Origin: Octopus vulgaris
Lineage: Eukaryota
Assembly: GCA_951406725.2 (NCBI GenBank)
Contig: OX597843.1
Location: forward strand, 18,538,001-18,602,000
Reading direction: 5' to 3'
Length of the DNA stretch: 64,000 nucleotides
Shown: positions 34,472 to 61,228 of the stretch, piece after piece
How the letters are laid out: each line of letters opens with the position of its first letter
Numbering within the stretch: position 1 is the first letter of the stretch
Translations under genes and position numbers: made by a program
The notes under the pieces: model-generated
Told to the model about the DNA's origin: nothing
The model's database searches: none
Seen by the model: only the letters and a program-made list of their open reading frames with translations

Positions 34472-34641
34472 CATCATCAATGTCTTTGCTTTCGATATCC
34501 TTTAGTCCTTGTGTGGTCTGTTCTGCATTGTAACATTGAGACATGTCTGGTTCTTGCCAGATACCAGTAAACGGTGAACACTTTTGTGATGACATGTTTT
34601 GACTTGATGCCATTTCTGGATGCCCCACTGTTCTGGGAGAA
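34472..34641 (-). CDS. aGPCR-like gene B, HormR exon 2 / start of GAIN-A (SPRTVGHPEM…GIWQEPDMSQCYNAEQTTQGLKDIESKDIDD)
   Basis: attttttcag| and |gtgagc, phase 2->1; GxWxxPDxSxC motif. Confidence 0.88.
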
Positions 34642-36051
34642 CTGAAAAAATAAATGTTAAATATTGTCAGTCGAGTTTATTCATTCTTAGGAGAATTTCA
34701 TCAGTCTCAGAGGAATATAAGAAACCTTCGAACTGGTCGGGATTTGAACTCATACTTTAGTGAAAGAAGGATAAATGGTGTATTGCATTTAGGGAATAAA
34801 TCTATTATTTACTCCTGATCCCTATCCTCAAAACTAATGTCATATATTTTCTAACTAGAGTTCAGATATAAACACAATATCCTGCCTCTGCTTGTATTTA
34901 CAAAAAATTGTTGTTTTTATGATTATTCAATACAAGATTAGTTGGAACGGTGTAGGTGATGCAATATTAAAGAACCGGGATGTTAGTTCAAGTTGAGTGG
35001 GGAAATTAGTTGCTAATATTTCGCCACCATAGACATCAGTAGCAACAGCGGCAGCAATGGATTTACGTATATTTTCCTACATATGCACAGATTTGAGTAA
35101 TTCCACCAGTTGGTCTTGTCTTAAAACTAATAAAGCTCAGCCTCTGGGAGGAACAATTTAGATGCTTAACCTGTGGAATGACGTGGTAGAAATGAGAGAA
35201 GAGAGACCGTGTTACATAGTTTGTGATGAGTAAAATGCCAGGATGACCATCATGTACTAGCAAGATATATAGCTCTACAGTAATCATAAAATTGAATAAA
35301 TAATATTAGCCTGAAACCAACAGAATCACCGATAGATTCTATTGGCTGTATCTAGGTATGTGCTTTCTTTCCTACAATTATTTTGTGAAATTCTTACAAG
35401 AATCTTTAAATCTTTGAATAATGCTGATTTCAAATTTTGGCACAGGGTCAGCTATTTTGGGCTGGGATAATTCAATTACATAGACCCCAGTGTTTAATTG
35501 GTACTTATTTAATCGATCCCGAAAGGATGAGAGAGAAAGTCAACCCTAGTGGCATTTGATCTCAGAATGTAAAGACGGAAAAACTGCTGCTAAGCATTTT
35601 GTCCGGCATGGTAACGATTCCGCCAGCTCAGCACCATAAAGCATTGTCTAATATTGGTTTCAAATTTTGGCACAAGGCCAGCAATTTTAGGGGAAGGGAT
35701 AAGTCGTTTACACCAACCTCAGTGCTCAATTGGTATTTATTTCATCGACCCGAAAAAATTAAAGGCAAAGTCGACCTTGGCGGAATTTGAACTCAGAACA
35801 TAAAAACGAATGAAATGAAAGCTTTGTATAATTTTGGCAACAAAGCCAATCTAGATAGTTAGGATAAGGCTAAATTATATCAAATAATGTATAAAATGTA
35901 AAAACGCTGGGACAAGAGATTGCAACCGATGGACGTTTAATTCTCTCGTGTTAATAAAGCTGTTATTTGCTCTACCAAGTAACATTCTCTCACAATAGGA
36001 TGGCGCTGAAAACTTCAAAATTTGAGTTGAAATAAATCAATAGAAACGAAC

Positions 36052-36166
36052 CAATGCCTTCTGGCTACATTTCCATGACATGGGATCTCTGCAGTAGTTC
36101 CTATTTTTGTCATTGGCCAGGAGAAAGTTCCATTGTTAGTTGATGTTGTGCTTTCATCACAAAACA
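36052..36166 (-). CDS. aGPCR-like gene B, HormR domain exon 1 (MFCDESTTSTNNGTFSWPMTKIGTTAEIPCHGNVARRHC)
   Basis: tttcttttcag| and |gttcgt, phase 1->2; C..WPxTxxGxxAxxPC..AxRxC hormone-receptor motif. Confidence 0.88.
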
Positions 36167-36194
36167 CTGAAAAGAAACAAAACATGGATATGGG

Positions 36195-36485
36195 AGTAGT
36201 CAGTAGTAGGAGTGGTGGTAGTGATGGTGGTGATTGTGGTGGTGGTGATGGTGTTGGTGCTGGTGATGTTGTTAGTGCTGGTGATAGTGGTGGTGCGGGT
36301 GATGGTATTATTATTAGTATTATTGTTATTTTCATTATTATTATTATTAATATTACTATTATTATTATTATTATTAGTAGTAGTAGTAGTAGTAGTAGTA
36401 GTAGTAGTAGTAGTAGTAGTAGTAGTAGTAGTAGTAGTAGTAGTAGTAGTAGTAGTAGTAGTAGCAGCAGCAGTAGTTGCTGTTG
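36195..36485. repeat. Compound (GGT)/(ATT)/(AGT) trinucleotide tract
   Basis: Direct reading, in intron immediately upstream of the HormR exon. Confidence 0.95.
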
Positions 36486-57910: not shown

Positions 57911-59839
57911 ATATATATATATATAAAAACATACTCTATCTTTTATTCCCCCTCTCATGTTCCTTCCCTTTTCTCGCTCCCCTCTCTCACATTGCTTGTC
58001 CCTATCTTGTCCCCTACCTATCTCCCCTCATTCCATGTGACTGGTGTCCGGCCAGCCATGATCTTTCTTTCTTGGCCTGACTGCCGACCTCTTGTGTCCA
58101 TCTCGAATGTCCCTGCTTTAAGCTTTCACTTCATACACGCCAGCTCAATTTGATTAGTTCTCAGTCGAAAGACACCCGTTGTTATTTCTTGTTGTTTGTA
58201 TTTGCAATTCTATACCATGTTCTCCGTTTTCTTTTTTTTTTTGTCTTTGTTGTCGTACACATTCGCTATCTTTCTTACAATAGGGTTTAATGCTTTTAGA
58301 TGAGACTTTTTTGGGGGCAACCAAATCGAACAATCTCAAGTGCAACTGCCCAAAATGGTCATGACTTCTGGAACTTGACTGAGGAAAGAAACCCACGAAT
58401 GGCCCGTCTTTTTCTGCCTGTCCTCCTAATTGTTGTTTCTCTTGTCCGCCTTTGTGTCGTATATCTGACTGAATGTTTTAACGTCCTCTATTGCGTTTTT
58501 GTTCCATATATATATTTATATATATATATATATATATATATATATATACTGTCAATAATAAAAGGGTAAAATTAATTAATTATTAATTAATTTTACCAAG
58601 TAGTGTTCAGTATGCAAAAATACCATTTACGCTATATTTAAAACATTACGTTATATAATTAGGGTTCAGTAAAATAATTTACGGTGTGTGGTCAAGTAAA
58701 TTATTTTACTGAACCCTAATTATATATATATATATATATATATATATATATATACGCATATATGTATATGTATATATATATGTATGTATATATATATATA
58801 TATATATATATATATATATATATATATATATATACACATATATATGCATATATATATTTATATATATGTATATATATATAAGCATATATACATACACGCA
58901 CACATATATATATACCTACATATATACATACACATATATATATATATATGTGCATGTCTCTGTCTCTGTCTGTCTGTCTCTCTCTCTCTCTGTATATATA
59001 TATATAGATATATATATTTATATATATCTTCTACATTGAAGACTTTTACCAACCTCATATATGCACACCAAACTTTCCGATCTGCATCGGTTAAACTTTC
59101 TGTATAGTGGACAATTGGATCAACGACATCTTAGAGCATCATAGAACATCGAGTGATCCAACTTAGCAACGAGTCGACACTCACTCAATATTTCCACTTC
59201 ACCGACCACTCTGCGTAACGCCTCTCGATTTTCGATTTAAACCTTCAGCACCGGATTACCCATCTCTCATTTCTTTAGGGAAGAAGAGTATATCTTTCTG
59301 AAAACTTGTCCGCCTTTTGATTTAAATTCCCCCCCTCACCTTACATTTTAAATCTACATTTCAACTCCCCACCATCTACTGTAGCAATATATGCTTTACT
59401 TCTGTACTTCGTTTTCTTTTTGTTTTTCCCGCTGCACCACACCCACCGACCCACATCCACACATTATTTGTCCCTGCTCCCATATTTACACTTTATACAC
59501 ACTTCACATGCTAGCTCACAGTTTCTACATACATATCTCACTTCGCCAGCACAGTTAGTCTCTTCACACTTTATTACACCTCCCCACGTCTTTCTCATTG
59601 GATATTCTATCTTTGACACATACACACTGGTACATACACTCATATACATTCAGCGTGAGCAGCTGAGACTGTGGGTGTTATCTAGCCATGTTGGTCTTGG
59701 TATACCCCTACATATCCTGCCAGTTGTAGTGGTAGAGGCCTCAGGTACCTCCAGCATATGTCCTATCAGAAGCTACTGTCAATACACTTTCTGGCTGGAC
59801 TCTCAAGTGTGATCAACTGAAACTGTTATCTAGCCATCT

Positions 59840-60070
59840 GTTCTTGGTCAACCCCTAGATTTCCTGTCAGTTTGCATGGGTTGAAGAATTGGTCTTGCGA
59901 TTTTCTCGTGTGACATTCTAATCGCATGCCCGTATAACCTGAGAGGTAGTGCCTCAATGTAGAAAACGAACGACTCGATCTGGAGAGACTCTGTCATCTC
60001 CAAGGTACGCACTGGTTCGAGTAAAGTTACTCCAGAGATTCTTCGGAGAAAACCCATTTCAGCCGCTTCT
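59840..60070 (-). mobile_element. RTE-like LINE 3' remnant
   Basis: FLRRISGVTLLE…LRLYGHAIRM…RKSRG. Confidence 0.65.
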
Positions 60071-61070
60071 ATTTGCGATCAAACCCTTTCGGTCGTTAGC
60101 CAACATTTATGAAAACCAAACTAAGGATAGCACGTTCCGCCGAGGTCGACTTTGCCTGTCATCCTTTCGGGGTCGATTAAATAAATACCAGTTACGCACT
60201 GGGGTCGACATAATCGATTTAATCCGTTTGTCTGTCCTTGTTTTTCCTCTCTGTGTTTAGCCCCTTGTGGGTAGTAAAGAAATATGTATTCCGTCTGTCT
60301 TTACGTTCTGAGTTCAACTTCAAGTCAACTTTGCCTTTCATACTTTCGGGGTCGATAAATTAAGTACCAGTTGCGAACTGGGGTCAATCTAATCGACTGA
60401 CCTCCCTCTCCCCCAACATTTCGGCCCTTGTGCGTAGAGTAGAAAAGAATAAATCCACACACTGGTTCTATTTCACTTTATTATCCGTCCCTTTGTTAAA
60501 AATGTGTTAAAAAATAAACAAAATGAATGTTCGATGAAACGTTCGGCTAATCAATCAAACAGTTATGATTGTTAGAAACCTTTTGTTGCCATCCATGACC
60601 TCCTCAATGACTATTTGAATGTTTCCGTTCTATACTTACATAGTTGTGAGTGAGAATGTACATGAGAGAGGAAGGGAGTTAGAAAGAGAGAGTGTCTGTG
60701 TGCATGTGCGCACACATTCATGGATGTGTGCGCTGTCGTGTGTCTGTTTGTGTGTGTGTGTGTGTGTGTGTGTGTGTGTGTATGTGCGCACACATTCATG
60801 CATGTGTGCGCTGTCGTGTGTCTGTGTGTGTGTATGTGCGCCTGCGTGTGTTTGTGTGCCGATGACGGTTTGTGTGATATAGTTGAATCTGTAAGTGCAT
60901 TAGAGAGAAAATGTGAATGAAAAGCGTGCGAATGGTAAAAGGTTTATTTCTCATATCTTTATCTATAATTTCCCTTTCAGAAGACATGATATTGTAAGCT
61001 CCAGAGAATAACCCGGATTTTTGTTCGTTTCAATAATAAAAGAAAAACAAGCAAGGAAAGTTTTCCTAAC

Positions 61071-61228
61071 CTTTACATTGTGCATAATTCAGTATACGGA
61101 TTGTTGCGCCTGTAGCCTCCTGACACGAGCCAATGACATCCACATTTCTGTTATATACTTTTTTAATATGATTTACGAAGGCTGGTAGGTGACATCCACA
61201 CGTCATATTCTTATTGTTTTCGAGGTTA
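61071..61228 (-). CDS. aGPCR-like gene B, last LRR/LRRCT cap exon (NLENNKNMTCGCHLPAFVNHIKKVYNRNVDVIGSCQEATGATIRILNYAQCK)
   Basis: ataattacag| and |gttagg, phase 2->1; LxxN..CxCxL and four-Cys LRRCT pattern; in frame with the next exon. Confidence 0.8.

Follow-up and report, generated by a model that had tools for sequence, protein, structure and literature searches.

The window studied here, C30:18538001-18602000 (a stretch of 64,000 nucleotides (nt), analysed as a whole, from the 2.8 Gb genome of Octopus vulgaris), carries part of a minus-strand gene with several features of a G protein-coupled receptor (GPCR) of the adhesion class: a signal-peptide-like start, and a multidomain ectodomain in which leucine-rich repeats (LRRs), a Ly6/uPAR (LU) domain and a SEA domain precede a HormR domain. 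The studied copy is nevertheless not an adhesion GPCR, since the GAIN domain with its GPS is absent, the seven-transmembrane (7TM) region is absent, and there is no membrane anchor. As the GAIN and 7TM exons have been lost, the product is likely secreted. We consider it fairly probable that the gene encodes a secreted glycoprotein which binds through its LRR face and serves as a non-signalling soluble decoy or recognition protein.

The starting point was an original prediction of eight minus-strand exons with GT-AG sites and intron phases 1,0,1,0,2,1,2, encoding domains in the order LRRCT-LU-SEA-HormR. Both parts were confirmed by splicing the exons (61228..34472), which have AG/GT ends throughout, continue with a further phase-1 intron and join into 336 codons without a stop, and by the public model at this locus, P0005 (CAI9744523.1, O. 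vulgaris, 426 amino acids (aa), “ADGRG6-like”), which has an identical splice chain and an identical product. The LU block with its 12 cysteines, the SEA block (291 nt, 97 aa) and the HormR block are each flanked by phase-1 introns. The eight-exon set is incomplete at both ends, with four further exons downstream (28782-23794) and fifteen upstream, beyond the window (Table 1). The complete gene has 27 exons across 213 kb and encodes 837 aa with no internal stop; its 14 LRR exons, of 72 nt each, are intact. A fifteenth LRR exon within the gene (C30:18637629, minus strand) lacks a proper acceptor and looks dead. The sole strong hydrophobic run of the product is the signal-peptide-like one at residues 14-28, and there are 15 N-glycosylation sequons.

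Between 34472 and a point 130 kb left of the window, a tblastn search with six paralogs (five of them GAIN-7TM receptors) and additional searches of the flanks found no GAIN, GPS or transmembrane (TM) exon on the minus strand. Pfam finds no GPS in P0005, and all four minus-strand TM5-7 matches on C30 lie upstream of the studied gene. What follows the HormR domain is a second, shortened SEA block and then the receptor family's own last exon. After residue 40 the hydropathy of the product reaches a 19-residue maximum of 0.61, and its last 25 residues average -1.4. The layout is also different from that of GPI-anchored single-LU proteins, as the LU domain is internal and the C-terminus hydrophilic. 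The expected receptor with a tethered three-finger module is thus not what this copy encodes. That it is a full adhesion GPCR all the same, with GAIN-7TM exons lying further on or lost in assembly, would agree with the public ADGRG6-like names and with the 7TM sequence carried by 13 of 45 relatives with an LU exon. We regard this as very improbable, considering that the gene terminates with a stop at 23794 in the family's last exon, that the same ending occurs at 18 loci and in the models of a second species, that the HormR-SEA2 splice is present in RNA-derived contigs, and that identity to either parent type (see below) falls clearly short of the 99-100% that a mis-join would give.

The exon structure suggests how such an ending could have arisen. 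Both the GAIN-to-TM7 block of the receptors and the SEA block start and end in phase 1, so that one can stand in for the other, and in the founder of the clade a copy of the SEA block may have replaced the GAIN-to-TM7 block while preserving the reading frame into the former last exon. As predicted by a duplicated SEA block, the last intron matches, over its first 860-890 nt, the one that follows SEA1 exon c in the secreted clade. SEA2 is probably a relic spacer without one strand, since its exon c has lost the 5' part bearing the third strand, and it is modelled with low confidence. The retained ETNL end, which we take to resemble a PDZ-binding motif, would be extracellular and idle.

The ending is not confined to this gene. 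The whole stretch from SEA2 exon c through the intron to the tail was found in 18 of 40 scored genome matches, at 89-100% identity, and 18 is a lower bound for the number of loci with this shared ending. When HormR loci were classified by what follows them (n = 58, excluding 9 of 67 HormR matches as partial or tandem and 11 of 69 TM matches as split halves or weak), 14 were followed by a SEA exon without TM5-7, 37 by TM5-7, and 7 were unclassified. Likewise, 11 of the 45 LU-bearing relatives have HormR followed by SEA and no GAIN. The frame is open in 11 of the 13 tail-exon loci fetched (one taken from public model P0024, one from SEA1 exon c onward), and apart from the frameshifts discussed below, exon length differences among the 13 loci are multiples of three. 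Three models of Octopus sinensis (P0004, P0027 and P0061) end in the same way. That 7TM-less forms were encountered only in O. vulgaris and O. sinensis is weak evidence for a restriction to these species. P0046 from O. bimaculoides was considered as a further 7TM-less form and rejected, as it matches the tandem SEA-HormR receptor P0086. The O. vulgaris model P0178, also without 7TM, runs from LRRCT-SEA-HormR directly to the tail, and may be a secreted form of independent origin or the result of a skip in annotation.

The clade is transcribed and spliced. In RNA-derived contigs the HormR a-b intron (36052/34641 joint) is spliced in 3 of 4 runs, mostly in paralog reads, the HormR-to-SEA2a joint, in a shorter paralog form, in 2 of 4, and SEA2b-SEA2c in 1 of 4, with HormR/SEA2 contig depths near 1000 in two runs. 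Spliced CT..AC joints show that the compared runs contain spliced transcripts. At the protein level, an LU peptide of the clade is present in 2 spectra from O. vulgaris skin-mucus supernatant, according to the supplement of PMC10138644; it occurs in 7 of 207 stored proteins, none of which has a GPS or TM7, and matches the C14 locus. The same supplement also lists skin-mucus peptides of LRR proteins resembling the family, LOC115232314 and LOC115225305.

Within this clade, the studied copy is a mosaic. Its LU and SEA1 exons are 94-100% identical to those of a receptor at C30:19.8 Mb and 73-92% identical to secreted copies, and its LRRCT exon is 88.6% identical to that of the same receptor. HormR a, HormR b and SEA2c are instead 97-99% identical to a secreted copy at C30:18.42 Mb, the HormR exons being only 80-88% identical to the C30:19.8 Mb receptor. 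Informative sites change type between 36183 and 36139, and the introns show the same receptor/secreted split, with about 89-96% identity to the nearest parent types. Judged from these sites, the copy is a recombinant with a receptor head on a secreted-clade tail, and unequal recombination at the start of HormR may have joined an LRR-LU-SEA head of the C30:19.8 Mb type to the secreted tail. The intron identities argue for a real, older crossover and not a mis-join. An assembly chimera was considered as the source of the mosaic and rejected, as parent identity is well under the 99-100% expected of a mis-join.

As for the domains themselves, the 12 cysteines are invariant when 11 LU segments, taken from Octopus and from other invertebrates, are aligned. 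Searched against the PDB, a profile built from these segments matches LYPD1 (6ZSS) with an E-value of 1.7e-8 and LYPD6 with 6e-7, as well as SLURP1 and LYPD6B; all nine matches at E<=10 (9/9) are LU or activin-receptor chains, and all 12 cysteines align to 6ZSS. Pfam gives CL0117-type matches in 6 of the 11 segments. The PDB match emerged after distant relatives had joined the profile: an Octopus-only LU profile matched no LU protein in the PDB, and a single LU exon matched only ACVR1 (E 0.31). Since AlphaFold models are poor over LU (pLDDT about 30-65) and fold searches are dominated by the SEA domain, the three-finger fold is assigned from sequence, by which the LU domain of the studied gene belongs to the LYPD1/LYPD6 type with 12 cysteines. 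When the genome was searched for a LYPD6-type gene (PF16975) standing alone as a donor, two weak matches resulted, the better one being an LU exon of the family itself (E 0.159), with split exons limiting the search.

SEA1 is modelled with four strands and two helices (beta-alpha-beta-beta-alpha-beta, ferredoxin-like) at a pLDDT of 67-85. The SEA of paralog P0032 aligns to that of zebrafish Gpr126 with Z 8.5 and a root-mean-square deviation (rmsd) of 2.5 over 86 residues (VIA rank third, tied with unrelated ferredoxin-like folds), and the SEA of the studied protein with Z 7.7 and rmsd 3.0 over 89. With Foldseek, neither model matched a PDB entry at E<=0.001, the results being generic ferredoxin-like folds, and the ESM Atlas returned a single unnamed cluster at 0.75, which is no more than a lead. 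Pfam SEA does not match P0005; paralog P0070, whose link to the family SEA profile has an E-value of 2.5e-17, matches PF01390 at E 2.9e-4, below the cut-off. HormR is also below the Pfam cut-off in P0005 (E 0.021), and the family profile aligns to fish ADGRG6 from the end of SEA through HormR to TM7. The LU, SEA-type and HormR calls of the original prediction are thereby borne out, as is its link to ADGRG2/4/6-type receptors, on which the GAIN-7TM searches agree with the profile alignment: the best PDB matches of the 7TM paralog P0021 are ADGRG2 (E 4e-73) and ADGRG6 (E 5e-66).

The layout as such is old. When the GAIN-7TM region of a paralog was used as query, receptors of Nucella, Patella, Mytilus, Liolophura, Owenia, Lineus, Ptychodera and Glandiceps outranked vertebrate ADGRG2/4/6 among the best 120 of 280 matches. 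The Octopus LU profile matches Nucella, Patella and Mytilus at E 1e-11 to 1e-7 (22 targets) and, after one iteration, Owenia, Lineus, Liolophura and Glandiceps at per-sequence E 1e-6 to 6e-4; the iterated profile has no match in Ptychodera or in the 8 rows from vertebrates, and none of 100 shuffles scores. LU occupies the same place in the receptors of Nucella, Patella, Mytilus, Owenia and Lineus, and in those of a chiton and a hemichordate, and LRRs precede it in 5 of the 8 named species. Receptors of the type LRR-LU-(SEA)-HormR-GAIN-7TM are thus present in gastropods, a bivalve, an annelid and a nemertean. The Octopus SEA profile had no match in Nucella, Mytilus, Owenia or Lineus and reached E 0.035 in Patella, so that SEA outside Octopus rests on position, length and a Mizuhopecten fragment (P0194) matching across LRRCT-LU-SEA. 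The proposal of a lineage-specific family consequently does not hold. Of the proposed phase-1 exon shuffling, the modularity within the family stands and the acquisition of LU in the octopus lineage falls, as LU is already found in other phyla.

Nor is an LU domain new to adhesion GPCRs, as had been assumed. According to the respective papers, LyAp2 and LyAr2 of starfish are LU portions of adhesion GPCRs (PMC9410279), two GPCR-like LU proteins of starfish go by the names ADGRG2-like and ADGRG6-like (PMC11595613), and LU-7TM proteins are reported from molluscs and arthropods, the domain key of the figure including LRR and GPS (PMC13719153). Like the octopus family, LyAr2, LyAp2, XP_033635539.1 and the mollusc and arthropod receptors described there have one LU of the Lynx2/LYPD6 kind in an ADGRG2/G6-like ectodomain; the available text of these three papers concerns receptors only and has no mention of SEA, octopus or secreted 7TM-less derivatives. 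The octopus-specific part is the expansion, with at least 65 LU-exon matches in the genome. In a 32-row tree (midpoint root, no outgroup from other subfamilies) the 16 Octopus rows form one clade with support 100/99; GPS H-L-T is retained in 14 of these 16 rows and absent in 2, and the 7TM paralogs have a Stachel-like start. This clade probably corresponds to group 3 of Ritschard et al. (PMC6408891), who describe GPS/7TM receptors expanded in octopus, 5 of 22 sequences having LRRs. The proteins of that survey were gathered by their 7TM Pfam signature, which leaves 7TM-less copies outside it, and “Ly6” has 0 occurrences in its available text (PMC6408891). The secreted clade is therefore invisible to GPCR surveys based on the 7TM domain, and databases label its members ADGRG6-like, slit-like or uncharacterised. 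In literature searches confined to open-access papers, none of the titles and abstract starts concerned secreted 7TM-less octopus forms. The secreted clade is the new part and, together with the head swap, the less expected one, the architecture being ancient and partly reported before.

Compared with known systems, the family shares a SEA-HormR stalk with vertebrate ADGRG6/GPR126, ADGRG2 and ADGRG4, of which ADGRG2 and ADGRG6 score best against the 7TM paralogs. In contrast to the ADGRG6 type, the octopus head is LRR-LU and not CUB-pentraxin, and the studied copy has no GAIN, GPS or 7TM. LYPD1 (Lynx2), LYPD6 and LYPD6B have the same 12-cysteine LU, but as GPI-anchored single-domain proteins, whereas the octopus LU is an internal module. 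Soluble adhesion GPCR ectodomains exist as shed N-terminal fragments and splice forms, and likewise provide a soluble ligand-binding arm; the octopus soluble form is instead encoded by separate germline genes. The variable lymphocyte receptors of lampreys have an LRR solenoid that is variable on its concave face, a likeness in working only.

Such variability is present here as well. In 13 LRR exons of the studied gene, five exposed positions have 6-8 different residues each, with a proportion of nonsynonymous differences (pN) of 0.63 and of synonymous differences (pS) of 0.32 at exposed positions and a pN of 0.087 elsewhere, where the scaffold is nearly fixed; repeat pairs are not independent. 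The choice of ligand-facing positions follows general knowledge of LRRs. Likeness among the LRR exons is 90% in the 100 nt before the exon, 81% in the exons and 78% in the 100 nt after. The ratio of nonsynonymous to synonymous rates (dN/dS) between subfamilies is mostly 0.3-0.6, with some pairs near 1. On the reading we favour, the variable concave face would bind a target without signalling, LU-SEA-HormR would form a disulfide-stabilised, glycosylated stalk or a second binding site, and the protein would most likely act in mucus or body fluid. As its head would derive from a signalling receptor of the C30:19.8 Mb type, it would compete for the ligand of that receptor, and the mosaic copy and its parent receptor are a matched pair for a direct comparison of decoy action.

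Several points weigh against this reading. No transcript or peptide of the studied copy itself was seen, the contigs, compared outside its LU-SEA part, reading paralog letters at diagnostic sites; neither the SEA2a-SEA2b nor the SEA2c-tail joint appears in the listed joints. Two of the 13 fetched tail-exon loci have a 1-nt frameshift, and 10 of the 18 loci are on one scaffold, C31, where assembly duplication is possible. The mucus support is a single peptide, which has a second database match; six further clade motifs are absent among the supplement entries listed (PMC10138644), and a peptide of another family member is also present in mucus, so that shed receptor heads could look alike. Among secreted copies, dN/dS (from few changes) is 1.05-1.2 in LU, SEA1 and SEA2 and 0.7-0.8 in HormR, and values near 1 fit relaxed as well as diversifying selection.

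Some of these points would suit a clade that is secreted and functional with the studied copy as a by-product of birth-and-death duplication that is recent, silent or neutral, namely the missing transcript and the clade dN/dS near 1, together with the recombinant origin and the LRR exon lacking an acceptor. We find this unlikely in view of the frame and splice sites kept in all 27 exons over 213 kb, the drift of the introns from the nearest parent types, a dN/dS to the receptor parent of 0.40 in LU and 0.17 in SEA1 (again from few changes), and the fact that none of the 26 amino-acid-changing differences within the clade removes an LU cysteine.

Alternatively, the secreted forms could serve the membrane receptors as endogenous ligands or as guidance cues bound to the matrix, in neural wiring or tissue adhesion. 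The octopus-specific adhesion GPCR groups of O. bimaculoides are expressed mostly in axial nerve cord, suckers and skin, according to PMC6408891, and at five loci a gene of the secreted type and a TM5-7 exon from the same receptor subtype are arranged tail-to-tail, both of which are compatible with such a role. These TM5-7 exons are 87-100% identical, and the five loci look like the duplication of a pair as a unit. The fast change of the LRR face, the young growth in copies and the mucus peptide are a better fit to changing outside targets, and group 3 has gill and skin expression in C. minor in the same source (PMC6408891), which makes the ligand alternative quite improbable. A decoy or recognition role of the secreted forms remains the preferred reading. 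It could be extended to a two-arm system of germline recognition derived from a single ancestral LRR-LU-SEA adhesion GPCR, with dozens of signalling receptors and at least 18 secreted forms released into mucus, fast-changing LRR heads swapped between the two kinds by recombination at the HormR exon and the studied gene as such a swap in place; this extension is tentative and rather doubtful. To our knowledge few diversified recognition molecules are known from cephalopods, and a family that pairs membrane with secreted forms, has variable LRR faces and is represented by a peptide in mucus is a concrete candidate.

Table 1. Features of the studied gene and related loci (window positions unless a scaffold is given).
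Feature	Position	Strand	Evidence
14 single-LRR exons (72 nt each) and signal-peptide/LRRNT exon; outside the window, upstream	C30:18612969-18774656		
LRRCT cap exon, 4 Cys	61071..61228	-	spliced exon chain
LU domain (predicted three-finger fold) exon 1, Cys 1-4	55500..55591	-	spliced chain, LU profile match
LU domain exon 2, Cys 5-12, ends in CC-x4-CN motif	54049..54232	-	spliced chain, LU profile match
SEA1 exon a	51649..51731	-	spliced chain, structure model
SEA1 exon b	49382..49431	-	spliced chain
SEA1 exon c	39806..39963	-	spliced chain
Inferred crossover interval (upstream receptor-type, downstream secreted-clade sequence)	36139..36183	-	informative sites
HormR exon a	36052..36166	-	spliced chain, Pfam, RNA-derived contigs
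HormR exon b and first residues leading into the GAIN domain in receptors	34472..34641	-	spliced chain, RNA-derived contigs
SEA2 exon a, duplicate of SEA exon a, in the position of the receptors' first GAIN exon	28700..28782	-	
SEA2 exon b	26936..26988	-	paralog search, RNA-derived contigs
SEA2 exon c, 5' end shortened, third strand missing	25268..25371	-	paralog search, RNA-derived contigs
Last exon, carries the stop codon and ends in ETNL; homologous to the exon for the cytoplasmic tail of the receptors	23794..23846	-	
Tail-to-tail pairs	C30:18.55-18.57 Mb, C31:1.51-1.53 Mb, C7:0.62-0.65 Mb, C14:0.04-0.08 Mb, C1:216.65-216.68 Mb		

The 7TM exons that the window does contain are those of a convergent plus-strand paralog (window 801-14770, reaching about 68 kb left of the window), a complete LRR-LU-SEA-HormR-GAIN-7TM receptor of which TM1-7 and the tail are the 3' exons. 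Its GPS has a Tyr instead of the usual His, which takes part in self-cleavage, and it may not self-cleave. Elsewhere in the family, the models P0001, P0003, P0086, P0013, P0039, P0041 and P0183 differ by entire phase-1 blocks, having one to three LU domains, a repeated SEA-HormR, or a loss of LU, SEA or HormR, although some of these differences may be annotation artefacts. Two lone LU second exons, each with one cysteine changed, lie beyond the mapped genes at C30:18441730 (plus strand) and C30:18826869 (minus strand).

The window also contains remnants of mobile elements, all on the minus strand. Broken DNA-transposon-like frames at 57796-56896, with a DUF4817 helix-turn-helix match, are presumably of the Tc1/mariner type. 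Long interrupted frames in the intron between SEA1 exons b and c (48840-46697 and about 45900-45000) have no Pfam match at E<=0.01, and we take them to resemble Penelope-type retroelements. Remnants of LINE-type reverse transcriptases (RVT_1, zf-RVT) are found at 9510-8479 and 4877-4096, within introns of the plus-strand gene.

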